64,000 nucleotides of DNA from an uncultured Actinomyces sp. (GTDB lineage Bacteria > Actinomycetota > Actinomycetes > Actinomycetales > Actinomycetaceae): positions 7,588 through 71,587 of the forward strand of contig CAYFOT010000004.1 of NCBI GenBank assembly GCA_964344825.1, given 5' to 3'. Under the pieces are notes generated by a model. The model was not told the origin of the DNA. It was given only the letters and a program-made list of their open reading frames with translations, and ran no database searches. Of the stretch, positions 8,926 through 55,310 are shown piece after piece (the first letter of the stretch is position 1; every line of letters begins with the position of its first letter). The translations under genes were made by a program, and so were the position numbers.

Positions 8926-8961
8926 TTGTCCACAGGGACGTGAATCGTGGGTTATCCACAG
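8926..8961 (+). promoter_or_regulatory. Paired DnaA-box-like direct repeats upstream of SSB-like gene 1 (function unproven)
   Basis: TTGTCCACAG (8926-8935) and TTATCCACAG (8952-8961), 26 bp apart. The proximal box lies ~96 nt from ATG 9057. TTATCCACA is the classical DnaA box and TTGTCCACA the actinobacterial variant. Confidence 0.4.
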
Positions 8962-9056
8962 GGCACGCGAATCCCCCTTGGTCCGTGTTCCGCGTTGCGG
9001 AAGGGTTGAACCAGGCGGAGGAACCGCCGCAACCGGATTAACTCAGGAGCAGTGCA

Positions 9057-9647
9057 ATGAGTATTAGCGACCTAATGGTTCTACGTGGACGCGTTGGAAC
9101 GGACCTTACTCTCAGCAGATCAGAGAACGGCGCTGGCAGAACTTTTTGCCGTTTTCGCATGGTCGTCCCGCGGTCTCGCAGGCGTGACAACGGAGAGTGG
9201 GAGGACATGGAGCCCCTCTGGTACACGGTCCGATCGTGGGGGACTCTGGCGGAGAACATGGCAATGTCACTGCGGAAGGGGCAACCCGTGGTGATCGCGG
9301 GTAGGCCCGCGGCCAGTGCTTGGGTTGATGGCGCCGGAGAGGTTCGCAGCGAACTTGCGATCAACGCGTTCACCGGCGGCCACGACTTAGGCCTGGGCGG
9401 TTCGTTCTACAAGAGGATGGCCCCGGGCTCCTCCTTTGCGGACTCAGAGAACAACAACACAGTCGTCAGTCGGCATGTGTCCGGCGTGGCTCCTGACGAC
9501 TCCGCTGCGACGGATGCCACCGGTGGGGAAGGGACGGACGTTGAAACAGGGTCCCACCCGCAAGAATCTGTGTCCAACGCCGATGATGAGAACTCCGGGT
9601 CCGCACCCGATTCGCAAACTTCCATGGAGGCGGAGGCCGCCGCCTAA
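9057..9647 (+). CDS. SSB-like OB-fold protein (paralogue outside the rpsF-ssb-rpsR context) with an acidic low-complexity tail
   Basis: N-terminal ~115 aa resemble the SSB OB fold (LRGRVGTDLTL...CRFRMVV...WYTVRSWGTLAENMAMSLRKGQPVVIAGR). An SSB-like gene next to ettA is a recurrent actinobacterial arrangement. There is no canonical C-terminal tip. Confidence 0.6.
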   Translation: MSISDLMVLRGRVGTDLTLSRSENGAGRTFCRFRMVVPRSRRRDNGEWEDMEPLWYTVRSWGTLAENMAMSLRKGQPVVIAGRPAASAWVDGAGEVRSELAINAFTGGHDLGLGGSFYKRMAPGSSFADSENNNTVVSRHVSGVAPDDSAATDATGGEGTDVETGSHPQESVSNADDENSGSAPDSQTSMEAEAAA

Positions 9648-9778
9648 AGACTTTGCACCGCCGTGGGCCTTGTTTGCCGCCGAAGTTTAGTGTTTCTCAG
9701 GGAGCCGGTGTACGCGGACGCCGGCAATTAATAATATGGTTGCACAAGCGACTTTTATGTTGAGGGATACGGAGAATC

Positions 9779-11461
9779 GTGGCGGAGTACATTTACTCAA
9801 TGGTTCGGGCACGCAAGGCCCATGGCGACAAGGTGATTTTGAATGACGTCACCATGGCTTTCTTGCCGGGAGCGAAGATCGGCATGGTCGGTCCCAATGG
9901 CGCGGGCAAATCGTCGATCCTGAAGATCATGGCCGGTTTGGATGAGCCGTCGAATGGTGAAGCTCGATTGACGCCGGGGTACACGGTCGGAATCCTGGAA
10001 CAGGAACCGAAGCTGGAAGAGGACAAGACCGTCCTCGAAAACGTTGAGCTCGGAGTTGCGGACACTATCGCAAAGCTGCACCGCTACAACCAGATCTCGG
10101 AGGAGATGGCGAACCCGGACGCCGACTTTGAGGCGCTCATGGACGAAATGGGGGAGCTGCAGACAGAGATCGACGCGGCGGATGCGTGGGACTTGGATTC
10201 TCAGCTCGCGCAAGCCATGGATGCTCTGCGTTGCCCGCCGCCGGACACGCCGGTGAATGTTCTGTCAGGTGGTGAGCGACGTCGTGTCGCGCTGTGCCGC
10301 CTTCTACTTGAGGCGCCGGACTTGCTCCTGCTAGATGAGCCCACGAACCACTTGGATGCCGAATCGGTGCTCTGGTTGGAGCAGCATTTGCAGAAGTATC
10401 CCGGTGCAGTCATCGCGATCACTCACGATAGGTACTTCCTGGACCATGTGGCGGAGTGGATTGCGGAAGTTGACCGCGGCCACCTGTACCCGTATGAGGG
10501 TAACTACACGACCTACCTGGAAGAGAAACAGCGGCGCCTGCAAATCCAGGGTAAGAAGGACCAGAAGCTTGCCAAGCGGCTCAAGGACGAACTGGACTGG
10601 GTTCGCACCAGTCCTAAGGGACGTCAAGCCAAGCAGAAGGCGCGTCTGGAACGCTATGAAGAGATGGCAGCTGAGGCTGAGCGCACCCGGAAGTTGGACT
10701 TTGAGGAGATCCAGATTCCTCCAGGGCCGCGTTTGGGATCAACGGTCATTGAGGCGTCTGATCTGAAGAAGGGCTTTGGGGACCGTGTCCTCATCGACGG
10801 TCTGTCTTTCAACCTGCCACCTAACGGAATCGTTGGGGTGATCGGTCCGAACGGCGTCGGGAAGACCACATTGTTCAAGACCATTGTTGGCCTTGAGCCA
10901 CTTGATGACGGCGACTTGAGGATTGGGGAGACCGTCAAGATTTCCTACGTGGACCAGAACCGCGCGGGCATCGACCCTGAAAAGCCCCTGTGGGAAGTCG
11001 TGTCAGATGGCTTGGACTACATTCAGGTCGGCAACGTTGAGATGCCTTCCCGTGCGTACGTTTCAGCGTTCGGTTTCAAGGGAGCCGATCAGCAGAAACC
11101 TGCCGGAGTTCTTTCCGGAGGGGAGCGGAACCGCCTCAACTTGGCGTTGACACTGAAACAGGGTGGGAACCTCTTGCTGTTGGATGAGCCCACGAACGAC
11201 CTCGACGTGGAAACACTTTCTTCACTTGAGAATGCGTTGGAGCAGTTCCCCGGATGTGCCGTGGTGGTCACTCACGACCGCTGGTTCCTAGACCGCGTTG
11301 CCACGCACATTCTGGCTTGGGAAGGTACGGACGACCAGCCTGATCGGTGGTACTGGTTTGAGGGCAACTTTGAGGCATACGAAAAGAACAAGGTGGAGCG
11401 CCTTGGAGCGGAAGCTGCACGACCAAGGTCTGTGACGTACAGAAAGTTGACCCGGGACTAG
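9779..11461 (+). CDS. ettA: Energy-dependent translational throttle protein EttA (ABC-F ATPase)
   Basis: N-terminus MAEYIYSM..., two ABC cassettes (GPNGAGKSS / GPNGVGKTT, LSGGERRR / LSGGERNR), and ~560 aa length typical of EttA. Confidence 0.92.
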   Translation: MAEYIYSMVRARKAHGDKVILNDVTMAFLPGAKIGMVGPNGAGKSSILKIMAGLDEPSNGEARLTPGYTVGILEQEPKLEEDKTVLENVELGVADTIAKLHRYNQISEEMANPDADFEALMDEMGELQTEIDAADAWDLDSQLAQAMDALRCPPPDTPVNVLSGGERRRVALCRLLLEAPDLLLLDEPTNHLDAESVLWLEQHLQKYPGAVIAITHDRYFLDHVAEWIAEVDRGHLYPYEGNYTTYLEEKQRRLQIQGKKDQKLAKRLKDELDWVRTSPKGRQAKQKARLERYEEMAAEAERTRKLDFEEIQIPPGPRLGSTVIEASDLKKGFGDRVLIDGLSFNLPPNGIVGVIGPNGVGKTTLFKTIVGLEPLDDGDLRIGETVKISYVDQNRAGIDPEKPLWEVVSDGLDYIQVGNVEMPSRAYVSAFGFKGADQQKPAGVLSGGERNRLNLALTLKQGGNLLLLDEPTNDLDVETLSSLENALEQFPGCAVVVTHDRWFLDRVATHILAWEGTDDQPDRWYWFEGNFEAYEKNKVERLGAEAARPRSVTYRKLTRD

Positions 11462-11489
11462 AGCACTCTGAGAGGGGAGACGGCGTTCC

Positions 11490-12182
11490 ATGGTTGACCA
11501 AGCAAGAAAAGTCCCAGTCACCGGGCTGCCCGGGGACTCAGTTCTTTCGGTAGCGGTCATCGACGACCACGAAATCGTGGCGTTCGGCGTGCAGAGGATT
11601 CTGGAGACGCAGAATTTGGATGCGAAGATCTTCTATTCCACGTCCGCTATCCAGGTGTCGGCCGATGTCAAGCAGCCGGCAGTGGCAGTGCTGGACCTAC
11701 GATTACACGACGGTTCAACACCGACGGAGTCCATCGAGATCCTGACAAGGAGGGGGCTGCCAGTCGTGGTTTACACTTCGGCTGATGACCCCGTGTTGGT
11801 GAGGGAAGCAATTGCGGGCGGTGCCATGGCGGTTGTTCGCAAGTCTTCCCCGCCCGAAGACCTGGTGGACACGCTCGTTGCAGCGGCGAAGGGTGAGCCG
11901 TCGGCTGGGTTGGATTGGGCAGCTGCCCTAGATGCTGACCGCGACTTCGTGGCGGAGAATCTAACACCAAATGAGACGGCTATCCTGCAGCTGTACGCGT
12001 CGGGGGAGACTGCTGAACAGATATCCCGGGCGCTGTCGTTCTCCATACACACCGTCAACAAGGCAGTCGCACGGATCAGAGAAAAGTATCGCTTGGCCGG
12101 CCGCAACGTAGAGTCGCGCATCGACCTTTTTCACCGTGCTGCTGAAGATGGGATAGTTTCGTTCTACGGTGACCGACGGTAG
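11490..12182 (+). CDS. NarL/LuxR-family response regulator
   Basis: Receiver domain (VAVIDDHE..., phospho-acceptor context AVLDLRL, conserved T and K) plus a C-terminal LuxR HTH (ETAILQLYASGETAEQISRALSFSIHTVNKAV). Confidence 0.85.
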   Translation: MVDQARKVPVTGLPGDSVLSVAVIDDHEIVAFGVQRILETQNLDAKIFYSTSAIQVSADVKQPAVAVLDLRLHDGSTPTESIEILTRRGLPVVVYTSADDPVLVREAIAGGAMAVVRKSSPPEDLVDTLVAAAKGEPSAGLDWAAALDADRDFVAENLTPNETAILQLYASGETAEQISRALSFSIHTVNKAVARIREKYRLAGRNVESRIDLFHRAAEDGIVSFYGDRR

Positions 12183-14487
12183 GCTCCCCGTGCAGAAACC
12201 GCCGGTGGCTGATGAGAGCGAACACGGAACAAGCCTGTATCTCAGCTACGCGCAACGCCTGGCCGCAGTTCTGGCGGCGGTTGGTGTACTTGCTACCCTC
12301 GCGCTGATCCTTCTCTTTGAGCCACTGGCGTCCACCTTGTTGACGCACAGGCCACTCGCATCATTCATGCTGTTCGGTGTACCAACCATAGGTGGGATCT
12401 CAGCCTCAGTAGGGTTAGTTATCGAGGGCAACTCCAAGACGATTGGCCGCTCCTCATCCAGCCATTTTGGGACGCGAGCACTGAGATTCACCGATGTCTT
12501 GTGGTGGCTGTGCAGCGCCGTGTCACTGCTGTCTTATCTCCTGCTGATGATCATCGAACCGCGCAGCCTAGATCCCGTCATGGAGGCGGCGCTCTTCTCG
12601 TTGCTCACGTCATATTGGATGGCCGCCAGCGCGGTTTCTGTTGCCCTGTTTGACCTGCCCGTCAGACTCATCTTTTTTGCAGTCGTGCTGGGGCTGCTCC
12701 TCACCATGCCCTTGCGCTTCGACGTGACTGCTCCCCCCGGCTACGCGGTCTTTGTGCTGTACCGCGTGGCCTTCACTCTGCCAATCCTGGTTGCCGTCTC
12801 GTGGCTGCTGGCACGCTCAAAAGGACTGGACGAAGTCCGCGCTGAGCGACGTTCGTCGGAGGCGTCCCTAGTTGCTGCGCGGACCGCGGTGACAGCGCGC
12901 AGGCGAACCAACGAGTTCGTTCACGACCACGTTCTGTCAGTGCTCACGGCATTCAGCATGTATAGCAACAACACTGAAGAGCTCCAAACCGCGGCACGAA
13001 ACGCCAACGACGTGATGCGTGGCCGCCTCGCGGGAGAGCCCATCGCTACCGCCGGGGACCTAGCTAGGGTTTTGGCACAGCACCACCCCTCTATGTATGT
13101 GTCATGCCCGCAGAAACACGCCAGTTTCGAGATCGGTGCGGCCTCGGATGCGCTTTACGCGGCCGCGATGGAGGCAATATCGAACGCCGTACGGCACGGA
13201 GGTTCCGATCCTGCCCGACCACCACAGATAGAGGCCCTGTTCTATGTAGAGGACAACGCTCTGCGCCTGTGTATCCGTGACAATGGGAGGGGCTTCGACG
13301 GGGCGGAAAGCACCCGTTCGGGCCGCTTCGGTATCGAGCATGGCATCCATGAACGCATGGAGGAGGCACGCGGGCGTGCAACCGTGGTGTCCGCACCGGG
13401 GCATGGGACAGTCGTGACCCTAATTTGGCCCGCATTGGTGCAAGCCCCTGAAGTTGCGGTGTCAGCACAATCGCGTTCACGGTGGCGGACCAGTCTTGAC
13501 GCGTCCATGTCCAGCACTGGCGCAAGGGCACTGGCAGCAGCTCTGGGCATAACTTACGCAGTGGTCATCCTGCTGGAACGCGAGGCGTTCTCTTCTCTAT
13601 TTCCGCCTCTCCTCGTCCTCGCAATGTACATGGCCGCCAATTACTCCTTGCTGCTGAAGAGGTGGCCGCTGGACAGGATGCCGACGTGGGCGGCGTGGGT
13701 CGTCGCGGCGACGGTTGGGATCGGGAACTACATTGCTTTGGCTGCGGTGAGCGACTACGTCCACATATACGAGGCTGCGTGGACGCTGGGCGCGGGGACG
13801 CTAATAGCTTGCGGCCTTCTGGTCCGCAAACACATGGGGGTCGCGTGGGCCACCGTGGTTCTCCTCTTTGCCTCTACGCTCTTGTGGACCAACGTGTACT
13901 TCCTCCAGTGGCAGTTGGCTCTGGAGATGATCATCGGGCAGGTCGTGACGCTGTCTTTCTGGACGGTCATGGTCTTGTGGTCATCGATGGGGGTTTATGA
14001 GTTGACGCTTGCGGACAGGATAGAAGCCCAGGCATCCGCTGAGCGCGTGGTGAACGAGGGCGTTAGGCAGGCGGTCACGGAGTCTCTGCGATCCGTTTCG
14101 CGTAGGGCGGCACCCCTGATCGAGCCGGTTGCCGCGGGGGAAGACCTCACTGAGGACATGCGGTTGGAGGCCCGTATTTTGGAGGCTTCGCTGCGTGACG
14201 GAATCCGCGCCGCGTCGTTTGTGGACACGCCGGTAGAGCAGGCAGCAAGTGAAGCCCGGCGTCGCGGCGTTGAGGTGGTGCTGCTGGATGACAGTGCAGA
14301 GGGGCCGGTACCTACAACTGTGCCACAGTCATTTATCGACGAAGCGGTGCGCGTGTTATCGCAGGCGAACTCCGGTCGCGTAGTCGTGCGCCTGCAACCT
14401 GTGGGCGCGCCGGTGGTGGGCACCATCGTGAGCCCTACGGAGCGCCTCCAGATAGCGTTACCGACCACCGAACAAGACTCTGATTAG
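12169..14487 (+). CDS. Membrane sensor histidine kinase (HisKA_3-type) followed by a second TM block and a degenerate kinase-like module
   Basis: About 6 TM segments, then H-box-like NEFVHDHVLSVL and HATPase motifs (EAISNAVRHG, IRDNGRGF, GHGTVVT). After that come ~6 more TM segments and a C-terminal soluble region with no His at the equivalent position. The start overlaps the regulator stop. Confidence 0.75.
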   Translation: MTDGRLPVQKPPVADESEHGTSLYLSYAQRLAAVLAAVGVLATLALILLFEPLASTLLTHRPLASFMLFGVPTIGGISASVGLVIEGNSKTIGRSSSSHFGTRALRFTDVLWWLCSAVSLLSYLLLMIIEPRSLDPVMEAALFSLLTSYWMAASAVSVALFDLPVRLIFFAVVLGLLLTMPLRFDVTAPPGYAVFVLYRVAFTLPILVAVSWLLARSKGLDEVRAERRSSEASLVAARTAVTARRRTNEFVHDHVLSVLTAFSMYSNNTEELQTAARNANDVMRGRLAGEPIATAGDLARVLAQHHPSMYVSCPQKHASFEIGAASDALYAAAMEAISNAVRHGGSDPARPPQIEALFYVEDNALRLCIRDNGRGFDGAESTRSGRFGIEHGIHERMEEARGRATVVSAPGHGTVVTLIWPALVQAPEVAVSAQSRSRWRTSLDASMSSTGARALAAALGITYAVVILLEREAFSSLFPPLLVLAMYMAANYSLLLKRWPLDRMPTWAAWVVAATVGIGNYIALAAVSDYVHIYEAAWTLGAGTLIACGLLVRKHMGVAWATVVLLFASTLLWTNVYFLQWQLALEMIIGQVVTLSFWTVMVLWSSMGVYELTLADRIEAQASAERVVNEGVRQAVTESLRSVSRRAAPLIEPVAAGEDLTEDMRLEARILEASLRDGIRAASFVDTPVEQAASEARRRGVEVVLLDDSAEGPVPTTVPQSFIDEAVRVLSQANSGRVVVRLQPVGAPVVGTIVSPTERLQIALPTTEQDSD

Positions 14488-15410
14488 GCTTCGAAGCTCC
14501 ACCTAGACTTCTTCGCGGACGGGCTCTTGGCAGCGCGCATCATTCCCTCCTGCGACGCGCTTGCAACCGGGATGCCTTGGTCGGTGTAGACGACGACGGT
14601 TGCCTTAGCGCGGCCCCCACCTACGGAGTCCACCTTGCCCGCAAACAGGAGCCACTCGTTCACGTCCACGTCGTGGTGGAACCACATCCCATGGTCCAAA
14701 GAGGCCAGTGAGAGGCCCGGCGCCGTCCACGACAACCCCACCGCACGCAGTGCCGGTTCCAACATGATTTGGTCCACGACATACGCCAGGAGTGCACGGT
14801 GGACAACCTGTGGGGCATCATCTGGGATCTCGGAGCGGATCCGCATCCAAACTTCCTGGGTCTGGGACCTTAGGGGGTCGGGGCCGGTGTACAACGACTG
14901 CTGGACGTGGCGCACATCGAACGCGGCGGTTTTACCAAGGAATTTCCCAACGGGGTGATCCATTGTCCGAAAGAGTTCCAGCGCGCTGGGTAAATCCTGA
15001 GGGGGTGGAACCACAGGCGCGGGGGAAGCGTAGTTCAATCCGTCCTCGGGTCCCTGGAAAGACGACACCATGGCGAAAATTTCACGGTCGTTCTGTCGCG
15101 CAACTACGGACCTATTCGAGAATGAACGCCCGTCCCTCAGTCGCGTAACGTCGAGGACGAACGGGGCATCGGGATCACCGCCACGCAGAAAATAACAGTG
15201 AAGGGAATGCGGTAGGCGGTTTACGTCAGGAACCGTCGCGCTGGCAGCCAGGAGAGCTTGGGCGATCACCTGACCGCCGTAAACCCTCCGAACCTGGGCT
15301 AATGAGCGCGCCTCGAAACTATCCTCACCTAACGGTTTCAAATCAAGAATTCTAAGGACGGATGCTACGGGTTCCGTATCTACAGCTGGGACATCTATTC
15401 CAAACTCCAT
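14484..15410 (-). CDS. tesB: Acyl-CoA thioesterase II
   Basis: 308 aa with a double hot-dog TesB-like sequence (LDLKPLGEDSFEA...YGGQVIAQAL...HSLHCYFLRGGD). Confidence 0.85.
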   Translation of the reverse strand: MEFGIDVPAVDTEPVASVLRILDLKPLGEDSFEARSLAQVRRVYGGQVIAQALLAASATVPDVNRLPHSLHCYFLRGGDPDAPFVLDVTRLRDGRSFSNRSVVARQNDREIFAMVSSFQGPEDGLNYASPAPVVPPPQDLPSALELFRTMDHPVGKFLGKTAAFDVRHVQQSLYTGPDPLRSQTQEVWMRIRSEIPDDAPQVVHRALLAYVVDQIMLEPALRAVGLSWTAPGLSLASLDHGMWFHHDVDVNEWLLFAGKVDSVGGGRAKATVVVYTDQGIPVASASQEGMMRAAKSPSAKKSRWSFEA

Positions 15411-15534
15411 GCACTTATTCTCCCGCGCAGGCCAGAGCCGGTGTGTGTGAGTCGCGATAACTTTGCGTTAGCAGTGGGGCGCCGAAACGACTATCCTCGT
15501 AACTGTCGAATACTCGCCTGACCAGAGGGACGCA

Positions 15535-17694
15535 ATGAACAACGACGTTGACGGCTCTAAGACCACCAAAACCGATGCGGACGCCGATTTGGTGCGTACC
15601 CTGGCAGACATGAATGGTGTCGCCACCTACTTTTGGACGTGGGTGGGTGAACAGAAGCAGGTGGAACCCGCCAACCTGTTGCGCACCCTGCGTGCCTTAG
15701 GTGTAAATGTCGGTCCTGACAGCAACAATCAGCAGGTTGTGGATGCTATTCGCGACACGGAGGATGCCCCGTGGCTGGCGACGCTTCCGACATGTACGGT
15801 TACGCGTCAAGGGGACTGGCGCGATCTGCTGGTGCACGTTGTGCATGGGCAATCAGTTCACGTGTGGTGTGTGTTGGAAGACGGCACGGGACTGGATCTT
15901 GCACAGCTTGACCGCTATGTCCCGCCCCGCGAAATTCATGGGCAGTGGAGGGGGCGTGCCACATTCGAAATCCCCGGCACCCTTCCACTTGGATATCACA
16001 CGGTGTTTGCCTCCGTGGAGGGCGGCCCCGCAGTCTCTGCGCCACTGATCGTGGTTCCGCAGCGCATTAACCCGTCGGCGCTACGTGGAGACCGGCGTTT
16101 CTGGGGCGTGAACGCCCAGGCATACTCTGTCCAGTCGCGCACGTCTTGGGGTGTCGGCGACGCAGCAGATCTTGACGACTTGGTCGCGGTAACAGCATCT
16201 GAGGGCGCTCAGTTCCTTCTGATTAACCCCCTACATGCAGCAGAGCCCGTAGCGCCTATAGAGAACTCTCCCTACCTCCCGGTTTCTCGGCAGTGGCTGA
16301 ACGTGTCCTACATCCGCCCAGAAGCCATCCCTGAATACGCGATGCTGCCAGACGGTGCCCGCGATGAGATAGAGGCTTTGCGCCGCGCGGTCATGGATGA
16401 GGACGACGACGCGCTGATCGACAGGGACTCAAATTGGGTCGCCAAGCGCGACGCCCTCGCACGAATTTTTGAGGTGCCCCGCAGCATTGCCCGTGAGGCG
16501 TTGTACCAAGAGTTCTGCCGTGAGGGCGGGGATGGACTGGAGAACCATGCGCTGTGGTGTGCGCTGGTTGAAGACAACGGCTCTACCGACCTACCTCCCG
16601 AATACCAAGACTGCAAGAGTGAGGCCGTTCGCGAATTCGCTGCGACCCATCAGCCACAAATTGAGTTCAACAAATGGTTGCAGTGGGTTGCCTCAGATCA
16701 GCTTTCTGAAGGTAACAAGATAGCCAAGGACCTAGGCATGTCCATTGGGGTCATGGCGGATATGGCTGTTGGAATCCACCCCCTCGGGTCAGAAGTTTGG
16801 TCCCACCCACACATGTTTGCACCCGACACCTACGTTGGGGCGCCACCAGACATGTACGCTCAGCAAGGGCAGAGCTGGAGTCAACCGCCATACAGCCCAA
16901 GGGAGCTTGCTAAGTCCGGATATGAACCTATGCGCAGGGTTATTCGGTCAACCATGGCCCTATCCGGAGCGCTACGAATAGACCACATCCTGGGTCTATT
17001 CCGCCTCTGGTGGCTGCCTAAGGATGCTTCTCCGGCTGAGGGAACCTACGTCTACTACGACCATGAAGCGACGGTTGGGATCCTCCTTCTTGAGGCTCAA
17101 CGTGCAGACTCCGTTGTGATCGGAGAAGACTTGGGCACGGTGGAACCCTGGGTTCGCGAATACCTGGCCAGCCGTGGGATCCTGGGTACTTCCGTCCTCT
17201 GGTTTGAGAAGGAGGGGTCGGGTTGGCCCCTGCACGCGGGTCAGTACCGACGTGACATTCTGGGCACGGTCAACACCCACGACTTACCACCCACCCGCGG
17301 ATACATAGACGGAATCCAAACGACGCTCAGAGACCGACTGGGTCTGCTGGTTGATGACGTTGAAACAGTCAGGGCGCGGGACGCGGAAGAGCAGAGGCAG
17401 ATGAAGGTCCGCCTCGTGGAGTACGGGCTGATGCCAGAAGATGCCGACGCAGAAGAGAACCTGCGTGCGCTTCATCGTTACGTCGCACGTACGCCTGCGC
17501 GGCTTGTGGCAGCTGCGCTAGTGGACGCGGTGGGGGAGGTACGCCCTCAGAACCTGCCGGGCACAAACGATGAGTACCCGAACTGGAAGGTGCCGCTTGC
17601 GGATGGAGACGGGCACCGCGTGTGGTTAGAGGACATTGCAGCAGGCCATGAGAACCCGCTGTTCAAGGTCATGCGTGAAGAGATGGGGGATTAG
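15535..17694 (+). CDS. malQ: 4-alpha-glucanotransferase (amylomaltase), long actinobacterial form
   Basis: GH77 motifs (RIDHILGLFRLWW, GEDLGTV, NTHDLPP) and the N-terminal extension typical of actinobacterial MalQ. Confidence 0.9.
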   Translation: MNNDVDGSKTTKTDADADLVRTLADMNGVATYFWTWVGEQKQVEPANLLRTLRALGVNVGPDSNNQQVVDAIRDTEDAPWLATLPTCTVTRQGDWRDLLVHVVHGQSVHVWCVLEDGTGLDLAQLDRYVPPREIHGQWRGRATFEIPGTLPLGYHTVFASVEGGPAVSAPLIVVPQRINPSALRGDRRFWGVNAQAYSVQSRTSWGVGDAADLDDLVAVTASEGAQFLLINPLHAAEPVAPIENSPYLPVSRQWLNVSYIRPEAIPEYAMLPDGARDEIEALRRAVMDEDDDALIDRDSNWVAKRDALARIFEVPRSIAREALYQEFCREGGDGLENHALWCALVEDNGSTDLPPEYQDCKSEAVREFAATHQPQIEFNKWLQWVASDQLSEGNKIAKDLGMSIGVMADMAVGIHPLGSEVWSHPHMFAPDTYVGAPPDMYAQQGQSWSQPPYSPRELAKSGYEPMRRVIRSTMALSGALRIDHILGLFRLWWLPKDASPAEGTYVYYDHEATVGILLLEAQRADSVVIGEDLGTVEPWVREYLASRGILGTSVLWFEKEGSGWPLHAGQYRRDILGTVNTHDLPPTRGYIDGIQTTLRDRLGLLVDDVETVRARDAEEQRQMKVRLVEYGLMPEDADAEENLRALHRYVARTPARLVAAALVDAVGEVRPQNLPGTNDEYPNWKVPLADGDGHRVWLEDIAAGHENPLFKVMREEMGD

Positions 17695-17723
17695 GCGGTT
17701 CCCCGCTTCCCCGCTTAAACGCG

Positions 17724-17760
17724 GACGCCCCGCGCGGATCATCCGCCGGGGCGTTCTTCG
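17724..17760. terminator. GC-rich hairpin between convergent malQ and the PTS EIIB gene
   Basis: GACGCCCCGCGCGGAT / ATCCGCCGGGGCGT stem (one bulge) followed by TCTTCG. Confidence 0.5.
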
Positions 17761-17774
17761 TGCTGTGCGACGCT

Positions 17775-18005
17775 CTAACCCAGCTCTGCTATTTCGTCCG
17801 CCAGGTTGTCGGCGATAGGGCCAACTACAACTTGCACAGTCTGCCCAACCTGGACGACACCGAACGCGCCAGCCTTAGTCAGTGCCTTATCGTCAACAAG
17901 CGCCGGGTCCACAACTTCAACGCGTAACCGTGTAATGCACGGCTCTACGGTCTCAACGTTGGACCGTCCCCCAAGTCCAGAAAGAATCTCTTGGGCCTGT
18001 GTCAT
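17775..18005 (-). CDS. Stand-alone PTS EIIB domain protein (glucose/maltose family)
   Basis: 76 aa containing the phospho-cysteine motif EPCITRLRVEV of PTS_EIIB. Confidence 0.8.
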   Translation of the reverse strand: MTQAQEILSGLGGRSNVETVEPCITRLRVEVVDPALVDDKALTKAGAFGVVQVGQTVQVVVGPIADNLADEIAELG

Positions 18006-18074
18006 CGGTAGTCCCCCTTCATCGGTTCACGCACTCCCGAACAATTTCAAAGTAGCACGCGGCAGAAAAGGACG

Positions 18075-18116
18075 GCTTAAAAGGTGAGCAGCTCCCCAGC
18101 ATTTGTGGGGAGCTGC
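18075..18116 (-). terminator. Intrinsic terminator downstream of pepN
   Basis: Perfect 11-bp stem GCAGCTCCCCA (18088-18098) / TGGGGAGCTGC (18106-18116). On the minus strand it is followed by TCACCTTTTAAG. Confidence 0.6.
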
Positions 18117-18155
18117 TTGTCACAGCGTCACGGGCTGCAACGCACTTTGGTTCTC

Positions 18156-20729: not shown

Positions 20730-20784
20730 AGTTGCCTTTCGTTCTACTAGATTTGCTTGCTTTTGGTTTTGGGGCGAATCCGGG

Positions 20785-22791: not shown

Positions 22792-22971
22792 TCCTCCATG
22801 GTAGCTCCCACCACCGACGCCACCGTCCCGTTAACCTCTTGGGCGAATTCGCAGATCGGAGGAGGTGAGTTCGTGCAGCGCAAATGCCTATTAGCCAGCG
22901 TGACGTGGGCCAAGGCAGAAGCCCGAGCAGATGCCAAGGCAGAAGCCAAGGCGCCGGATAGGGTGGCGACG

Positions 22972-23433
22972 TTAGAACGGCGATGAATCCGTGGCTTGCG
23001 CGCCCCCATGGTCATCTGCGGATCCGCCCGGATGCCCTTGGTAACCCATGGGGATGCTCCCGGTATCCACCTGAGGCTGGGCCTCTGCAGCCTCAGCCTT
23101 GCGCGAAGGGATCACGCCTAAGAACCGGGGAAAACGCAGGACGTAGCGAAGCCCCTCACTTCCGTCGCGCCTGTGGAAAGTCTCCAGGACCAGCGTCCCC
23201 TCCACACTCACGCGGTCGCCCTTATTCAGAACGCTGGATAGATAGCGCGCCTCATCATCCCAGAACGTTGCGCTTATCCAGAGCGGCGCACCCATTTCTG
23301 ACCAGTGGCCCGTACTCTTATCTCTGTTTGACGCTGTTGCGTTGAGTCGTAACTCCACAACGGCTTTTTGTTGCGGCGTCCACCGCAGCACCGGATCTGC
23401 AATTGCCCCGGTTGCTACTGCCCTGAGTGCCAT
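22972..23433 (-). CDS. SSB-like single-stranded DNA-binding protein paralogue
   Basis: OB-fold-like N-terminal domain (VVELRLNATASNRDKSTGHWSEMGAPLWISATFWDDEARYL...GDRVSVEGTL), a flexible tail, and a C-terminal DSSPF resembling the SSB acidic tip (D-x-PF). Confidence 0.65.
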   Translation of the reverse strand: MALRAVATGAIADPVLRWTPQQKAVVELRLNATASNRDKSTGHWSEMGAPLWISATFWDDEARYLSSVLNKGDRVSVEGTLVLETFHRRDGSEGLRYVLRFPRFLGVIPSRKAEAAEAQPQVDTGSIPMGYQGHPGGSADDHGGAQATDSSPF

Positions 23434-23525
23434 TTTCTTCCTCCCCTAGCTCCGCTCACCGCCCTCGGCTTGCTCACTTTTCAGTGTACGTGCGGCTCCG
23501 ACACGAAATGCTGGTGGGGGCAGAT

Positions 23526-23563
23526 CTGTGGATTCACCACGCGAATGGGGAGCCTGTGGATTC
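23526..23563 (-). promoter_or_regulatory. Paired DnaA-box-like direct repeats upstream of SSB-like gene 2 (function unproven)
   Basis: CTGTGGATTC occurs at 23526-23535 and 23554-23563 (GAATCCACAG in gene orientation), 28 bp apart. The proximal box lies ~93 nt from the start codon at 23433. Confidence 0.4.
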
Positions 23564-23638
23564 CCCGGCGTGTGTCCCGCTAGGTGATCTTGCGCGGAGG
23601 TCCAGCCGTGGGATCCCGCGCGAAGAGGGAGACCTCGA

Positions 23639-23763
23639 CGAAACTACATAGGAGGCTCGAAACTACATAGCGGGGACGAAACTACATGTGGGGTAGCAAA
23701 AAGTAAGAGATAACAATGTTATTTTTGCCCCGTATGTAGTCTCGTCCCCCTCATGTAGTTTCG
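23639..23763. repeat. Symmetric array of 19-bp-periodic repeats (3 forward, 2 inverted) flanking an AT-rich core
   Basis: CGAAACTACAT starts at 23639, 23658 and 23677 (+). Its complement ATGTAGTCTCG / ATGTAGTTTCG is at 23734-23744 and 23753-23763. Each unit is followed by a G-run. The core (about 23695-23728) is tagcaaaaagtaagagataacaatgttatttttgcc, with an inner GCAAAAA/TTTTTGC stem. Confidence 0.85.
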
Positions 23764-23838
23764 ACGGCAGTCCAGTCCGATCAGCGAACAGCAAACAAGC
23801 CTTAGCCAACGCTGAGCTGGGTCTGAACGGGCGCGGAC

Positions 23839-45738: not shown

Positions 45739-45767
45739 ACGGTTCACCTAGCAATAGATGAGAAGAT

Positions 45768-45799: not shown

Positions 45800-45820
45800 G
45801 TGTCCGGAGGGATCGTTTTT

Positions 45821-46378: not shown

Positions 46379-46382
46379 CATC

Positions 46383-48237: not shown

Positions 48238-48247
48238 CTCTTTTCGA

Positions 48248-48289
48248 CATAATGGCCCAGTCCCCTCAGAGGTAGACTGGGCCATTATG
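48248..48289 (+). terminator. Perfect 15-bp-stem hairpin after rplS, overlapping the lepB start codon
   Basis: CATAATGGCCCAGTC (48248-48262) / GACTGGGCCATTATG (48275-48289) with a 12-nt loop. Confidence 0.55.
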
Positions 48290-49788: not shown

Positions 49789-49851
49789 GCTTTTTACACA
49801 GGCCGCGACATAATACGGAAGGCCCCCGGGAGCCCCACGGAAAGGACAGTA

Positions 49852-50157: not shown

Positions 50158-50158
50158 G

Positions 50159-50194
50159 TTTTCCACAGTTCCGCGGATCTGGCGCAATCCACAG
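50159..50194 (+). promoter_or_regulatory. Paired DnaA-box-like direct repeats upstream of yraN-comM-dprA (function unproven)
   Basis: TTTTCCACAG (50159-50168) and CAATCCACAG (50185-50194), 26 bp apart, ~52 nt before ATG 50246. Confidence 0.35.
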
Positions 50195-50245
50195 GATGCC
50201 GATTTAGCGGTGGCTTGACCAATATTGGGCGACCAGTGTTGAGTC

Positions 50246-50641
50246 ATGAGCCAAACAACAATAACTAAACAATCTGTTCCTGCTACCACCAGACTCCAGC
50301 TGGGGTGCTACGGAGAGGATCGGGCCGCCGCCTACCTTGAGACTGCGGGCCTCAGGATCCTCGACCGGAACTGGCGTCTCGGTACCGTTGGGGAACTGGA
50401 CATCGTCGCAGAAGATGACGGCGTCGTGGTCTTCGTTGAGGTGAAGACTAGGCGCGGTATTGGCGCTGGACTTGCCTCGGAGGCAGTCACCGCGCAAAAA
50501 ATGGATCGCATACGGCGCCTGGGTGCCGCGTGGGGAATCCGCAATGGGTCGGGGCGCCCATACCGATTCGACATTGTCGGTGTGTATGTACGTGATGGGC
50601 GCGAACCAATCTTCGAATGGTTACAGGACGTCGGCCAGTGA
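50246..50641 (+). CDS. YraN-family (UPF0102) endonuclease-like protein
   Basis: GEDRAAAYLETAGLRILDRNWR...GELDIVA...VFVEVKTR. Confidence 0.85.
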   Translation: MSQTTITKQSVPATTRLQLGCYGEDRAAAYLETAGLRILDRNWRLGTVGELDIVAEDDGVVVFVEVKTRRGIGAGLASEAVTAQKMDRIRRLGAAWGIRNGSGRPYRFDIVGVYVRDGREPIFEWLQDVGQ

Positions 50642-52245
50642 CGGGTTTGGCACGCGCATATGCGGTCGCCCTCACTGGATTAGAAGGAACGGTCGTTGAA
50701 GTCCAAACCCACATCGGACCAGGCATTGTCGGGACGACCCTGGTTGGCCTGCCCGACGCGTCCTTGCGTGAAGCGAAAGAGAGGGTGCGTGCCGCCCTTT
50801 TCTCCTGCGGTATACCGACGCTGAACAGGCGCATCACTGTGAACCTGTCTCCGGCAGACCTGCCTAAGACTGGTTCGGGGTTCGATCTTGGAATAGCCGT
50901 TTCGATGCTGGTTGCGCGTGGGGTCATCACGCATGAGTGCGCCTCCGGCACGGTTTTCGCGGCGGAACTTGGGTTAGATGGGTCCGTCCAGGCCGTTCCC
51001 GGGGCTTTGCCTGTGGCCCTTGCGTCGTCCGCCTCTGGGTACAGTCGGCTGGTCGTCGCTCCACCAATGGCTGAGCAGGCGCGTCTGGTCTCCGGTCTGG
51101 AAGTCGTGTGCTGTGCGCACCTGTTGGATCTACTGGCCATATTTGGGCTTCCGATGGGTGCGGGGCAGACGCTGGAGTGGAGTTGGGAAGAGCTTGATGC
51201 TGCTGCGCGAACCCGGTTGGCAGATACCGCGCCACTTGAGCACGGGGTTGTCGGGGGGAGCGAGGGCGGGGGCGAAGGCGAAGATGACGACACAGACCTG
51301 ATTGAGGTGCGCGGCCAGCGTTTCGCAATAGAGGCATTGGCAGTGGCCGCGATTGGCGGCCACCACAGCCTCCTTGTGGGACCTCCGGGCGTTGGGAAAA
51401 CCATGCTGGCAACCCGGATGCGGGCAATACTGCCTGATCTGGATGAGACGGAGGCACTTGAGGCCACGGGACTGCGCTCCCTGATTGGCGCAGGAGGCCA
51501 CAGCGCATCCCTAATGCGCAGGCCTCCGTTGGAGCAGCCGCACCATAGTGCGACTGTGCCGGCTCTGATTGGGGGCGGCAACCCTGTGCGACCCGGCGCT
51601 GTTTCCTTGGCGCACGGTGGTGTGCTCTTGCTTGATGAGGCTCCGGAGTTTTCGGTTCGGGCGCTCGACGCCCTGCGCCAGCCCCTGGAGAACCACTCTG
51701 TTTCAGTACATCGGGCCAACGCATCCGTCACGTTCCCGGCGCGCTTCCAGTTAGTCATGACGGCGAACCCGTGCCCCTGTGGGGGCGCGGTGCGGGCCGG
51801 TGAAGATGCCTGCAGGTGCTCCCACGTCCAGAAGGCGCGGTACTGGTCGCGCCTTTCGGGCCCGCTCCTGGACCGGATCGACCTGCGTCTACATGTCGGA
51901 CGCCCCAACCTACTGGAAGCAGACTCTTCGCCACCACTCAGTACCGCGGAGGTGAGGGAGCGCGTACGCGACGGCAGGCAGCGCTCTTCCAAGCGCTGGT
52001 CGGACTACCCGTGGAGCCACAACGCCGCAGTCCCGGGGAAGTTCTTGCGTGACAACTCCGGCCTGCCACAGGAGTACATGAGGGCAATCGAAGACCAGGT
52101 TGACCGCGGCATTCTGTCGTTGCGAGGGGCCGACAGGATCTTGCGGCTGGCGTGGTCGTCCGCCGACTTCAACGGAAACGCCATTCCGACTCCTTCGGAC
52201 TTGGCAAATGCATTTGATCTCAGAGGAGAGGAAAGAGGAATCTGA
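50638..52245 (+). CDS. comM: YifB/ComM-family Mg-chelatase-like AAA+ ATPase
   Basis: Lon-protease-like N-domain, Walker A GPPGVGKTM, LLDEAPEF, and a Cys cluster NPCPCG. Start probably GTG 50638, overlapping the yraN stop (the track ORF begins at 50617). Confidence 0.88.
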   Translation: MTGLARAYAVALTGLEGTVVEVQTHIGPGIVGTTLVGLPDASLREAKERVRAALFSCGIPTLNRRITVNLSPADLPKTGSGFDLGIAVSMLVARGVITHECASGTVFAAELGLDGSVQAVPGALPVALASSASGYSRLVVAPPMAEQARLVSGLEVVCCAHLLDLLAIFGLPMGAGQTLEWSWEELDAAARTRLADTAPLEHGVVGGSEGGGEGEDDDTDLIEVRGQRFAIEALAVAAIGGHHSLLVGPPGVGKTMLATRMRAILPDLDETEALEATGLRSLIGAGGHSASLMRRPPLEQPHHSATVPALIGGGNPVRPGAVSLAHGGVLLLDEAPEFSVRALDALRQPLENHSVSVHRANASVTFPARFQLVMTANPCPCGGAVRAGEDACRCSHVQKARYWSRLSGPLLDRIDLRLHVGRPNLLEADSSPPLSTAEVRERVRDGRQRSSKRWSDYPWSHNAAVPGKFLRDNSGLPQEYMRAIEDQVDRGILSLRGADRILRLAWSSADFNGNAIPTPSDLANAFDLRGEERGI

Positions 52246-53462
52246 TGGAACTGGATGATCCGTATCAGGTGGCCGCCGCGTGGTCGAACATAGCGGAACC
52301 GGGAGACATATGGGCGGGGGCGCTGCGGGAGAGGCTTGGACCGGCAGAGGCACTGGCGTGGGCAGTCGCGCCATTCAGCGCCCCACCGCCCGACCTGGAG
52401 GGCCCAGGCGGTCAGCGTGGAGAGGGCGCGAAGGAAGGCTGGCGTTCCGCTCACCGCAGATGGGAGCCGCGAGTTGAGGCGTTGAATGTGGAGAATGACC
52501 TGGCGACTCTACAAGAACTAGGTGGGCGCCTAGTGATACCGCAGAGCCCTGACTGGCCCGCAGCACTTGAGGCACTGGAGGTTAGGTGTCCGGCTGCACT
52601 GTGGGTGCTGGGTAAAGCCGCCCTCGCCATGGACGACGACCGGTGTATATCCATCGTGGGTGCGCGCGCCGCAACGTCGTACGGGGTGAAAGTCACCGCG
52701 CAGATGGCACATGACTTGTGCGAGGGCGGATTCGTCGTCGTATCCGGAGGTGCGTACGGCATTGACGCCGCCGCCCACAGGGGCGCCCTGGAGGCCGCGG
52801 AGCAGGCCGGGAATCTTGGCGCTCCGGAAGCGCGCATCCCAACCATCGCCATAATCTGCGGGGGTCTCTCTAACCTCTACCCACCGGGGAATGAGTCCCT
52901 GTTCAAGAGGATCCAAGAATCCGGGGGTCTGATCGTCGCTGAAGTTCCGCCCTCGTTCCGCCCGGCGCGCTGGCGCTTCTTGGAGCGCAACAGGCTCATC
53001 GCCGCGTGGTCGGCCGCGACCATCGTGCCGGAGGCCGGTGCACGATCTGGTGCCATGGCAACCGCGAACCGTGCGGTAGAACTGGGACGTGACGTCGGCG
53101 CGGTGCCCGGGCCCGTGACGTCTCCCGCTTCTGCGGGACCGCACTCACTGATCAAGGATGGTGCGGCACTTGTTGAAAACGCGTGGGACGCGGCCGCCCT
53201 GGTCCTTGGAGTTGATTCGGTAGATAGCCTTGCCGCTCAAGAGCCGACGGACCCGGTGGAAAAGGAGTTGTCCAGATTGGGGGAGTTGGAGCGCCGCGTG
53301 TGGAACGCACTCGCCCTCACGGTTGCTGTGCCCTCCCAGAACGTCGCGCGTGCCGCTGGGATAAGTGCGGAGGAGGCCGGCGGGGGACTCCTCCGCCTTC
53401 ACATGGCAGGCTTGGCCACCTGTGAGAACGGATTGTGGCAGCGAGCCCACCTCGCGGCGTAG
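52245..53462 (+). CDS. dprA: DNA-processing protein DprA
   Basis: Rossmann-like DprA core (IVGARAATSYG..., VVSGGAYGIDAAAHRGAL, RFLERNRLIAA). Start overlaps the comM stop. Confidence 0.88.
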   Translation: MELDDPYQVAAAWSNIAEPGDIWAGALRERLGPAEALAWAVAPFSAPPPDLEGPGGQRGEGAKEGWRSAHRRWEPRVEALNVENDLATLQELGGRLVIPQSPDWPAALEALEVRCPAALWVLGKAALAMDDDRCISIVGARAATSYGVKVTAQMAHDLCEGGFVVVSGGAYGIDAAAHRGALEAAEQAGNLGAPEARIPTIAIICGGLSNLYPPGNESLFKRIQESGGLIVAEVPPSFRPARWRFLERNRLIAAWSAATIVPEAGARSGAMATANRAVELGRDVGAVPGPVTSPASAGPHSLIKDGAALVENAWDAAALVLGVDSVDSLAAQEPTDPVEKELSRLGELERRVWNALALTVAVPSQNVARAAGISAEEAGGGLLRLHMAGLATCENGLWQRAHLAA

Positions 53463-53554
53463 CAGCCGTTCCGTCAGGGGAGTAGTACGAGGGCGAGGTG
53501 GCGCCCAAGGTTCCCGTCGCCTCAGGATTCTGCGGCCTCCGGTAGCATCCAACC

Positions 53555-54613
53555 ATGGGTGAGTTCGACGCCAACAATGCCAGTGCAGGGGACCTTCTGA
53601 CGGCTTGGGAAACCCACTTGGCGGTTCGCCTTGGCAGGTCCCCGCAGACGGTCCGCGCCTACGTGTCCGACGTCCGCACGATGTTGACGGACCTAGGCGT
53701 GGACCTAGAACCCGCGGGCACTGCTTCCGGGTCCAAACCTTCCGTGCCTGCACCCTCCGCGCCCACTCTGGGTGAGCAACTCCAGTTTCGCGCGCTCAAG
53801 GGATGGCTGGCCAGTCGCGTAGGCGCTGGTTTATCCCGCGCAACAGTGGCGCGCAACGCCGCGGCGACCCGCTCCTTCTGCGCTTTCCTAGTCGCGCAAA
53901 ACGTCTTGGATACGGACCCCTCGGTGAACCTAGAAGTGGCGTCACCCAGCACCCGACTGCCCGCCGTACTGGCTCAAGACGAGGTGGAAAGGCTTCTTGC
54001 CCAAGCGCGCGACGAAATCGCTCGCACCGCACAACAAAGCAAAGAGGCCGGACCACGCGCGAAACCAGAAGAGATCGCGGTGGCCGTGCGGGATTGGGCG
54101 ATCACCGAACTACTCTATTCGGCGGCACTGCGTGTCCAAGAATGCGTCTGCCTAGACGTTGGGGACCTGAATCTGGAATCAAGGCACGTGCGCGTAGTTG
54201 GCAAAGGCAACAGGCAGAGGGTTGTCCCATTTGGCAGGCCGGCGGCAGTGGCGCTTGGGGAATGGCTGGGGGTGCGCGAGCAACTGGTGGCGGACGTGTC
54301 AGCACCGCCGCCCTCGTCCCTACGCGCATCTTCGCCCTCGTTCCCACTGTTCCTTGGCGCACGCGGGGGACGCATCGATCCGCGGATCATTCGCGGGAAC
54401 CTGCATAGGCTGGCGGCGCGCGCCGGGGTAAAGGACGTAGCCCCGCACGGCCTGCGCCATTCTTCGGCCACACACCTGCTGGAAGAAGGTGCGGACCTGC
54501 GCTTCGTGCAGGAGTATTTGGGTCACAGCTCTCTGGCGACCACCCAGCGGTATACGCACGTGGACTCAAAGCGACTCAAAGAGGTCTACGCTCGGGCGCA
54601 CCCGCGCGCCTGA
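53555..54613 (+). CDS. xerC: Tyrosine recombinase XerC
   Basis: Tyrosine recombinase catalytic residues (ALRVQE, HGLRHSSATHLL, LGHSSLATTQRYTHV) in the conserved position after dprA. Confidence 0.88.
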   Translation: MGEFDANNASAGDLLTAWETHLAVRLGRSPQTVRAYVSDVRTMLTDLGVDLEPAGTASGSKPSVPAPSAPTLGEQLQFRALKGWLASRVGAGLSRATVARNAAATRSFCAFLVAQNVLDTDPSVNLEVASPSTRLPAVLAQDEVERLLAQARDEIARTAQQSKEAGPRAKPEEIAVAVRDWAITELLYSAALRVQECVCLDVGDLNLESRHVRVVGKGNRQRVVPFGRPAAVALGEWLGVREQLVADVSAPPPSSLRASSPSFPLFLGARGGRIDPRIIRGNLHRLAARAGVKDVAPHGLRHSSATHLLEEGADLRFVQEYLGHSSLATTQRYTHVDSKRLKEVYARAHPRA

Positions 54614-54631
54614 CTCCCAGCCAGTGTCGTT

Positions 54632-55183
54632 TCACTCCCATGGCTTCAACACTGAGGGGCCAACGATCATCCGCAAAGGATTCACATACTCATTCTTCGC
54701 AAAGCGGGCGCCCCAGTGAAGCGGCCCAGGAGAGTGGCCCGGCGCAACCGTCGCGATTGGAGCACCAGCACGAACAGCGGCCCCCGTTTGAACCAGCGGA
54801 ATGACAGGTTCATATGTGGAGCGCAGGCCGCCCTCATGCATAACGGACACGACTTGCCGGTCCACCACGGTCCCGGAGAACACGACCGTGCCATTGGCCG
54901 GGGCCACCAGCACGGATCCAACCGGAGCATTCAGATCAACGCCCCGGTGGCCACTCAGCCAAGGCATGCTGGGCGGATCAAACGCGCGCGTCACCGCGAC
55001 GGGCCCTCCCGTGGGCCAGATCCATCTCCCTTGAGGCAGGTGATCAGCCTGTGCTGGCAGATCCGCGGCCAGCCCAAGACTTATTAGGATCACTAGGAAT
55101 AGGGCGACGCCAACCCGCGAAGAACCGCGCGTTGTGACGGTTGGCCCGCGTGTCCCTGTCTCTGCTGTCTCTGAGGGTTCCAA
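54632..55183 (-). CDS. M23-family metallopeptidase (secreted peptidoglycan hydrolase)
   Basis: Signal/TM segment and M23 motifs HRGVDL and HWGA. TTG start at 55183 behind GGAAGGAG. Confidence 0.8.
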   Translation of the reverse strand: MEPSETAETGTRGPTVTTRGSSRVGVALFLVILISLGLAADLPAQADHLPQGRWIWPTGGPVAVTRAFDPPSMPWLSGHRGVDLNAPVGSVLVAPANGTVVFSGTVVDRQVVSVMHEGGLRSTYEPVIPLVQTGAAVRAGAPIATVAPGHSPGPLHWGARFAKNEYVNPLRMIVGPSVLKPWE

Positions 55184-55215
55184 TATCCGCTCCTTCCACT
55201 AACGTGGTATCCGCA

Positions 55216-55245
55216 CCCTGCACGTTTCTACCCTGCACGTTTCTA
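55216..55245. repeat. Exact 15-bp tandem duplication CCCTGCACGTTTCTA x2
   Basis: Units at 55216-55230 and 55231-55245 are identical. They lie 33-62 nt upstream of the M23 peptidase start codon. Confidence 0.8.
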
Positions 55246-55274
55246 GGGGCGCGCGGGCGCCTGAATCGATCAGC

Positions 55275-55310
55275 CTGTGGATTCGAGACGTAAAACCGCA
55301 ATGTGGGGCA
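55275..55310 (-). promoter_or_regulatory. DnaA-box-like pair upstream of the M23 peptidase gene (proximal box strong, distal weak)
   Basis: CTGTGGATTC at 55275-55284 (GAATCCACAG in gene orientation, ~92 nt from the start). The TGTGG core repeats 26 bp away at 55302-55306 (ATGTGGGGCA) and again at 55321-55325. Confidence 0.3.

Follow-up and report, generated by a model that had tools for sequence, protein, structure and literature searches.

An intergenic element with the core TCCACAG stands before four transcription units in a 64,000-nucleotide stretch from an uncultured Actinomyces sp. (contig CAYFOT010000004.1, positions 7,588 to 71,587; this whole stretch is referred to here as the window). 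According to Pfam the genes downstream encode two SSB proteins, a UPF0102/YraN protein followed by Mg-chelatase/ComM and DprA, and a Peptidase_M23, which confirms the identities given in a first-pass annotation of the DNA. From the comparison with related sequences, the best reading is that the boxes form a widespread promoter-coupled cis element, which would define a regulon for the processing of single-stranded DNA (ssDNA) together with an M23 peptidase. The protein most likely to read it is DnaA, to which we would give an even chance. The rigid geometry that links each box to the predicted -10 hexamer of the downstream promoter is a new finding of this analysis.

The boxes that had been proposed at the four intergenic sites are all present where they were placed. 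Site 1, on the forward strand, comprises a distal box TTGTCCACAGG (8926-8936), which is an exact actinobacterial DnaA-box 9-mer followed by GG and scores 17.3 bits with our weight matrix, and a proximal box TTATCCACAGG (8952-8962), which is an exact E. coli DnaA-box 9-mer, also followed by GG, and scores 18.5 bits; the boxes lie 95 nt before the ATG of SSB paralog 1 at 9057. At site 2, on the reverse strand, the distal box GAATCCACAGG (23553-23563) and the proximal box GAATCCACAGA (23525-23535) precede the SSB paralog 2 gene, the latter box by 93 nt from the ATG at 23433. Site 3, again on the forward strand, has its distal box TTTTCCACAGT at 50159-50169, beginning 2 nt past the stop codon of the DUF2469 gene, and its proximal box CAATCCACAGG at 50185-50195, 51 nt before the ATG of yraN at 50246. 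Only one strong box is found at site 4, before the M23 peptidase gene on the reverse strand. This proximal box, GAATCCACAGG (55274-55284), is preceded by a degenerate copy 26 bp upstream, CCCCACAT (55301-55308), and another 19 bp upstream by a second degenerate copy, CCCCACAG (55320-55327), which the first-pass annotation did not contain.

As a single heptamer TCCACAG is not enriched across the window as a whole, with 13 occurrences against 9.4 expected. Pairs of it are another matter: the pattern TCCACAG-N15-25-TCCACAG has three matches where 0.01 would be expected, and none of 100 shuffled sequences reached three. These are the pairs at 8929/8955 on the forward strand, 23560/23532 on the reverse strand and 50162/50188 on the forward strand, with 26-28 bp between their members. 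The signal in the window is pairing, intergenic position and orientation towards the gene, beyond what chance would give. It had also been claimed that the extended box (A/T)TCCACAGG occurs only between genes. This holds in part: when a weight matrix was trained on relatives only, seven of its 11 best hits in the window were the intergenic boxes of the four sites, but TTCCACAGG is found within the coding region of SSB paralog 2 (23170-23178, reverse strand) and CTCCACAGG inside a gene at 58900.

To look at conservation, metagenomic contigs were scanned with a DUF2469 protein alignment, which gave 80 loci. At least one TCCACAG is present in 51 of the 67 actinobacterial spacers between DUF2469 and yraN, with 77 copies in the forward orientation and one in reverse. 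The heptamer is 81-fold denser in these spacers, at 5.2 per kb, than in the remainder of the loci, at 0.064 per kb, and no one-mismatch variant of TCCACAG comes near this enrichment. Adjoining boxes are 18-19 or 26-30 bp apart. The boxes upstream of yraN are kept in two of the loci (L005 and L009) and in Actinomyces minihominis while the spacer between them diverges, the proximal box of site 3 being conserved in L006 as well as in L005 and L009; more distant genomes have single boxes. That the sequence between the boxes diverges while the heptamer is enriched in the orthologous spacers indicates that selection acts on the boxes themselves.

The other target genes give a similar picture. Of 25 loci with the M23 gene, 15 have boxes ahead of it, and so do M. 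tuberculosis (GGAATCCACAGCG and CATTGTCCACAAAA), M. smegmatis (GGTTCATCCACAGGCC) and Nocardia (GGTGTCCACAGGTC and AGTTGTCCACATTC). SSB paralog 1 is part of a conserved block of exonuclease, SSB and ABC-F ATPase genes and its orthologs have one or two boxes each, and a 34%-identical SSB in another genomic context, after dynamin-like GTPase genes, has a box pair with a 28-bp spacing. Conservation in the orthologous intergenic regions of distant relatives, on which the first-pass annotation had staked its proposal, therefore holds for the yraN spacers, the M23 loci and the SSB orthologs alike, and supports the view that the four sites share one cis element. None of the outcomes named there as contrary to the proposal was seen: the element has been conserved, and it is these gene families to which it is specific.

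Alignment of 73 boxes gave the consensus Y-Y-R-T-C-C-A-C-A-G-G. The G directly after TCCACA is found in 85% of the yraN boxes and 80% of the M23 boxes, compared with 26% of the occurrences elsewhere in the same loci. Two further features seen in the window organism did not survive the comparison. A CRP-like palindrome, cGTGG-N5-CCACA, is not kept across lineages, and a second half-site, GAWTC, 6-14 nt past the box, is clear in the window but accompanies only 21 of the 93 boxes of relatives (4 and 9 in the controls), so that it is lineage-specific.

The promoter-proximal boxes are held at a nearly constant distance from a -10-like hexamer. Counted from the T of the TCCACAG core, 61 of 70 unique promoters have an nAnnnT hexamer that starts at +44 to +47: 27 at +46, 22 at +45, eight at +44 and four at +47. 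Such a hexamer follows 42 of the 51 proximal yraN boxes (82%) and 13 of the 16 proximal M23 boxes (81%) at this spacing, but only 1 of 23 (4%) and 0 of 7 (0%) of the respective distal boxes and 3 of 53 (6%) other genomic copies of TCCACAG. The consensus of the hexamer and the bases that follow is C-A-n-n-n-T-G-G; position -12 is a C in 43 of the 61 promoters and a T in two (window and loci L005-L095), while the -35 region of the 61 aligned promoters is without information. The C at -12 and the GG discriminator, where TAnnnT would be usual, could mean either that the promoter has been deliberately weakened or that a particular sigma factor is used. Simple scans of the four window regions for sigma-70 promoters and terminators found none.

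All four sites in the window fit the +44 to +47 geometry. The predicted hexamer of site 1, AAGGGT (9001-9006, forward strand), lies 46 nt past the T of the proximal box, with a predicted start at about 9013, and that of site 2, TACACT (23483-23488, reverse strand), 44 nt past it, with a predicted start at about 23476. For site 3 the hexamer is CAGTGT (50234-50239, forward strand; 46 nt); its end is just 6 nt short of the ATG at 50246, from which a leaderless transcript is predicted. Site 4 has CAGGGT (55230-55235, reverse strand; 46 nt) within a perfect 15-bp tandem duplication (55215-55245; TAGAAACGTGCAGGG twice on the reverse strand), which creates a second copy of CAGGGT at box +61 of the M23 promoter; the start predicted here is at about 55223. 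Many yraN and M23 genes resemble site 3, with an ATG or GTG 56-60 nt past the T of the box and a CAnnnT ending 6 nt before the start codon. Leaderless genes of Actinobacteria are laid out in this way, and several of the targets are accordingly predicted to be leaderless. The box is therefore a part of the promoter, at about -60 to -50 (near -57) relative to the predicted start, with one or two further boxes near -75 or -85.

The combination of fixed position, strict orientation and conservation across orders points to a sequence-specific protein that stands in direct register with RNA polymerase. A protein bound at each box would act as a component of the promoter, and these weak promoters would depend on it to recruit or position RNA polymerase, in the style of a class I activator. 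The result would be co-regulation of the SSB paralogs, yraN-comM-dprA and the M23 peptidoglycan peptidase in many Actinobacteria. We think that the protein quite probably activates, because the -10 hexamer is suboptimal and a protein at -57 is too far upstream to block the core promoter; repression, through oligomerisation towards the promoter, is less likely.

If DnaA were the reader, the element would make the provision of ssDNA-handling proteins and of a cell-wall hydrolase depend on the status of the replication initiator. At the E. coli origin the R1 box (5'-TTATCCACA-3') reads towards the region that is unwound. Since the boxes described here read towards the -10 hexamer in the same way, DnaA-assisted melting of the promoter is conceivable, though purely speculative. 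An extended version, which we put forward tentatively and consider less than likely, is that across the Actinobacteria DnaA, or another reader of the same box, serves as a rigidly placed activator of promoters that have no conserved -35 element and are in many cases leaderless. It would drive a competence-like set of genes for ssDNA processing (ssbB paralogs, yraN, comM and dprA) and a septal or cell-wall M23 hydrolase, tying the supply of recombination mediators and wall remodelling to the status of replication, possibly by a mechanism resembling origin melting.

The resemblance to DnaA boxes, pointed out in the first-pass annotation, is genuine and extends further than had been noticed. The boxes match the DnaA-box 9-mer TTATNCACA or the actinobacterial TTGTCCACA, with site 1 containing an exact copy of both the actinobacterial and the E. 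coli consensus and the other window boxes agreeing at seven or eight of the nine positions. The consensus of the relatives is Y-Y-R-TCCACA, a degeneracy that agrees with TTGTCCACA, the high-affinity box published for Mycobacterium and Streptomyces (PMC4285127). Beyond the 9-mer, the G(G) flank is common to the R1, R4, dnaA-promoter and mioC-promoter boxes of E. coli. When a 45-kb E. coli region was inspected, the perfect TTATCCACA boxes of the dnaA promoter, R1 and R4 and the box of the mioC promoter were found to be followed by GGA, GGG, GTA and GGT, respectively, GG in three of the four; a G(G) flank is typical of the best-characterised strong DnaA boxes. The sequence GTTATCCACAGGGCA at the proximal box of site 1 presumably agrees throughout with the R1 box of oriC and its flanking bases, where TTATCCACA followed by GGG was seen. 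In favour of DnaA there is also its universality, since the binder has to be one that is shared by Actinomyces and Mycobacterium.

Several observations weigh against DnaA as activator of these promoters. To our knowledge neither a fixed position nor a strict orientation is a feature of DnaA-regulated promoters. Nine DnaA-like boxes in the DnaA-bound dnaA promoter and oriC of M. tuberculosis lie in both orientations, and the next base is A in five, T in two, C in one and G in one, compared with 80-85% G here. The case for activation over repression is itself indirect, and weak -35 elements are common in actinobacterial promoters, so a missing -35 alone is no proof of dependence on an activator. 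The DnaA sites of M. tuberculosis obtained by in vitro DNA affinity purification sequencing (IDAP-seq; S8, about 35 sites) include none at Rv2890c-Rv2891, even though this spacer has GAATCCACAG and a perfect TTGTCCACA. Similarly, none of the 14 peaks from chromatin immunoprecipitation sequencing (ChIP-seq) of DnaA in M. smegmatis (PMC7738170, Table S9) could be placed in the rpsB-M23 region when coordinates were estimated roughly from gene numbers. These two negatives are softened by the assays mainly detecting clusters of four or more boxes and, on our own reading of the sequences, by the mycobacterial M23 promoters departing from the canonical geometry.

Two isolated observations concern mycobacterial DnaA. 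The same M. smegmatis table (PMC7738170, Table S9) has a weak ChIP-seq peak, 1.9-fold, at 4,789,573-4,789,924 of NC_008596 for which no gene is given; by rough interpolation of gene numbers it could lie near ssbB (MSMEG_4701). The dnaA promoter of M. tuberculosis (L097, 9891-9944) contains a DnaA box CTGTCCACAT at 9891 and an AACGGT at box +45, as in the regulon promoters, a single case that may be due to chance.

The same promoter architecture and regulon could instead be served by an uncharacterised, widely conserved actinobacterial transcription factor whose site overlaps the DnaA-box consensus by chance, and we regard this as a serious possibility that falls a little short of an even chance. 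By analogy with WhiA/WhiB such a factor could dock on RNA polymerase, and rigid docking would fit both the strict orientation and a spacing to the -10 hexamer that varies by no more than about 1 nt. The motif also has its information further towards the 3' side than a DnaA box does: TCCACAG is near-invariant, with a G after TCCACA in 80-85% of cases (26% elsewhere), while positions 1 and 2 are only pyrimidines. The absence of the promoters from the mycobacterial IDAP-seq and ChIP-seq lists, and of the G from the oriC and dnaA-promoter boxes of M. tuberculosis, would also be expected for a factor other than DnaA, and there is a precedent in WhiA/WhiB, actinobacterial activators that bind upstream of -35 at leaderless promoters (PMC10243135). 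Set against this, no candidate protein was found and the motifs of the known universal factors differ (WhiA, GACAC(GCC); MtrA, GTnACc repeats with an 11-bp period; PafBC, the RecA-NDp element). It would also have to be a coincidence that the boxes match the DnaA box, down to the GG that flanks the best ones of E. coli.

The remaining explanations appear much less probable. Titration of DnaA, one of the roles suggested in the first-pass annotation, would make the boxes titrating or reactivating sites of the datA or DARS kind, which take no direct part in transcribing the adjacent genes. Although several boxes are perfect DnaA-box 9-mers, there are only one to three of them per site, they point towards the gene (77 forward, one reverse), their distance to the -10 hexamer is fixed at 44-47 nt, and the same gene families follow them in many lineages whatever the genomic context. 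The small number of boxes, the orientation and the fixed distance are those of promoter architecture and not of a datA-like sink, and titration is not supported; we consider it very unlikely. An element acting in RNA, where the repeated UCCACAGG in a 5' leader or in read-through transcripts would be the target of an RNA-binding protein or a small RNA, could account for the strict strand specificity, and at site 3, where the boxes start 2 nt past the upstream stop codon, read-through RNA would include them. The boxes nevertheless lie upstream of the predicted -10 hexamers and of leaderless start codons, no Rfam family matches them, and in our reading of the sequences no hairpin beside them is conserved across lineages; a covariance-model scan of the window at the Rfam gathering score matched only the tRNA at 5864-5936. 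An RNA element would seem, if anything, slightly more improbable still. Chance occurrences, or relics of a repeated mobile element, would be compatible with the lone heptamer being no commoner in the window than expected, but not with the excess of pairs or the 81-fold enrichment in orthologous spacers, and can for practical purposes be set aside.

The element described here has several features of the promoters at which DnaA is known to regulate transcription (E. coli dnaA and mioC, B. subtilis sda and the Caulobacter regulon): the site is asymmetric, 9-11 bp long and recognised by a monomer, it has the Y-Y-R-TCCACA consensus and the G(G) flank seen in E. coli, and the boxes stand before genes as short groups of direct repeats. 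It differs in its strict orientation and its position near -57 from the start; at E. coli mioC the box abuts the -35 and the -10 is just 31 nt downstream, and at the E. coli dnaA promoter DnaA is a repressor. Among the literature examined, no DnaA regulon contained ssb paralogs, dprA, comM, yraN or M23 genes. A search of the literature for the motif, or for a dprA/comM/ssbB regulon, gave nothing relevant apart from one trace, in the promoter of S. coelicolor ssbB (SCO2683). The authors of that study annotated a 'DnaA box' and long direct repeats in this promoter (Paradzik et al, 2013; PMC3616714), which, like those described here, is an SSB-paralog promoter without a standard consensus; its transcription start was mapped 73 nt ahead of the AUG. 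The description covers the one gene and proposes no regulon, conservation, geometry or binder. It is probably the same element, and the annotation counts in favour of DnaA.

Other actinobacterial regulators were compared and rejected. WhiA/WhiB, for example at the leaderless sepX promoter, also use an asymmetric site upstream of -35 that is read by a monomeric helix-turn-helix protein and have leaderless targets, and these factors are conserved across the Actinobacteria and linked to the cell cycle. Their motif, GACAC(GCC), occurs however in either orientation and at a variable distance, whereas the boxes contain no GACAC and have a fixed orientation and spacing. A GACAC core is present once near the boxes, in GACACACGCC at 23576-23567 (reverse strand), just upstream of the distal box of site 2; it resembles the M. 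tuberculosis WhiA motif GACACGCC, is seen at this site only and could be chance.

PafBC is similar in that its RecA-NDp promoters have an asymmetric, orientation-fixed element at a fixed distance from -10, are conserved in Actinobacteria and have targets in DNA metabolism. The RecA-NDp consensus is tTGTCRgtg-N8-TAnnnT, with the element right beside the -10, and PafBC was dismissed, the core here being TCCACAG with a gap of about 38 nt to the -10. Sigma-28/WhiG-like GCCGAT, ComX-like CGAATA and extracytoplasmic function (ECF) -35 elements do not fit the box distances. MtrA binds direct repeats of GTnACc-type half-sites with an 11-bp period (PMC6265350); neither these nor GTCACAgcg fit the core TCCACAG, and the boxes are spaced by 18-19 or 26-30 bp and not with an 11-bp period. 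As both WhiA/WhiB and PafBC rely on orientation-dependent upstream elements and factors docked on RNA polymerase, a mechanism of the kind proposed here is already known.

The content of the regulon is reminiscent of competence regulons, in which dprA, comM, an ssb paralog and a murein hydrolase come under one motif (the ComX cin-box, ComK boxes or Sxy/CRP-S). Here too a single regulatory motif serves dprA, comM and an ssb paralog, though it is unrelated to the cin-box, the ComK box or the CRP-S site. No DNA-uptake genes (comEA, comEC, comF or pilus genes) were found in the window or the fetched loci, and we are not aware that most Actinobacteria with the element are transformable. DprA, ComM and SSB paralogs are, as far as we know, retained in almost all Actinobacteria, most of which are not known to take up DNA. 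A shared element at a fixed position provides an experimental handle on these genes, as it predicts transcription starts, critical bases and spacing and can be used as bait for the regulator. Should DnaA prove to be that regulator, its regulon would gain a new, widely conserved branch whose activator geometry is unusually rigid; should it be another protein, a conserved transcription factor of the Actinobacteria will have escaped notice until now. It would bear on genome maintenance in pathogens (Mycobacterium, Actinomyces and Nocardia) and in antibiotic producers.

The gene for SSB paralog 1 (9057-9647, forward strand) lies in the order RNase_T exonuclease, SSB, ABC-F ATPase, which is seen at 8171-14487 and can be compared with loci L089-L094. 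We take this to be the actinobacterial ssbB position, the neighbourhood of Rv2478c/Rv2477c in M. tuberculosis. After the ABC-F ATPase gene, both here and in L090, there follow genes for a LuxR-type response regulator and a histidine-kinase-like protein with a DUF8320 domain, which are both missing in A. minihominis. GGGCGAGGGTGA is repeated 2.1 times (8846-8870) where the RNase_T-like exonuclease gene ends, about 60 bp ahead of the distal box of site 1. SSB paralog 2 (153 amino acids; 22972-23433, reverse strand) is 28% identical to SSB paralog 1 and 30% identical to a third SSB lineage (P0018), which has paired boxes too; the two SSB proteins of the window are divergent, with SSB paralog 2 placed in a separate (third) lineage. 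Between its site 2 boxes and the end of a formate/nitrite-transporter gene, a 19-20-bp unit with TATGTAGTTTCG in it is present in 2.6 tandem copies (23638-23687, reverse strand), which could be the binding array of another regulator.

The reading frames of yraN (50246-50641), comM (50617-52245) and dprA (52245-53462), all on the forward strand, overlap or abut. They are followed by a xerC-like integrase gene (53555-54613) and by the M23 peptidase gene (54632-55183, reverse strand), which is divergent from rpsB. The gene order, ileS, a 1262-amino-acid gene, rnhB, DUF2469, yraN-comM-dprA, xerC-like, M23 and rpsB, is that of the core chromosome; the large gene we take to be smc from its position and size alone. 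The nearest matches of ComM are from an uncultured Actinomyces (89% identity) and A. minihominis (60%). Before the DUF2469 gene there is a weak box-like sequence, TTTTTACACAGG (49795-49815), beside an ATAATA hexamer that looks like an ordinary -10; the box is probably coincidental and the promoter probably an ordinary one outside the regulon.

Viral contigs were also scanned for box pairs with the -10 geometry, but the spacings were spread over 18-30 bp and no downstream gene belonged to the regulon families. Arrays of four or five GTTATCCACAG units with an 11-bp period were seen in L170 (3395-3460) and L122 (317-362), which have flanking sequence in common. The array in L170 lies between a small-terminase gene and a gene for a P-loop, large-terminase-like protein, and is most likely unrelated to the regulon, being a recognition site for packaging in which strong DnaA boxes are mimicked.

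The G+C content of the window falls at about 8 kb, near the tRNA gene at 5864-5936, from 0.64-0.67 (about 1-8000) to 0.58-0.60 (8000-24000), and synteny in relatives suggests that this is still core chromosome. Between the divergent genes at 1734-2786 (reverse strand) and 3064-4737 (forward strand), there is an intergenic array at 2803-2890 of about 12 tandem CGTTG pentamers with overlapping 10- and 15-bp periodicities.

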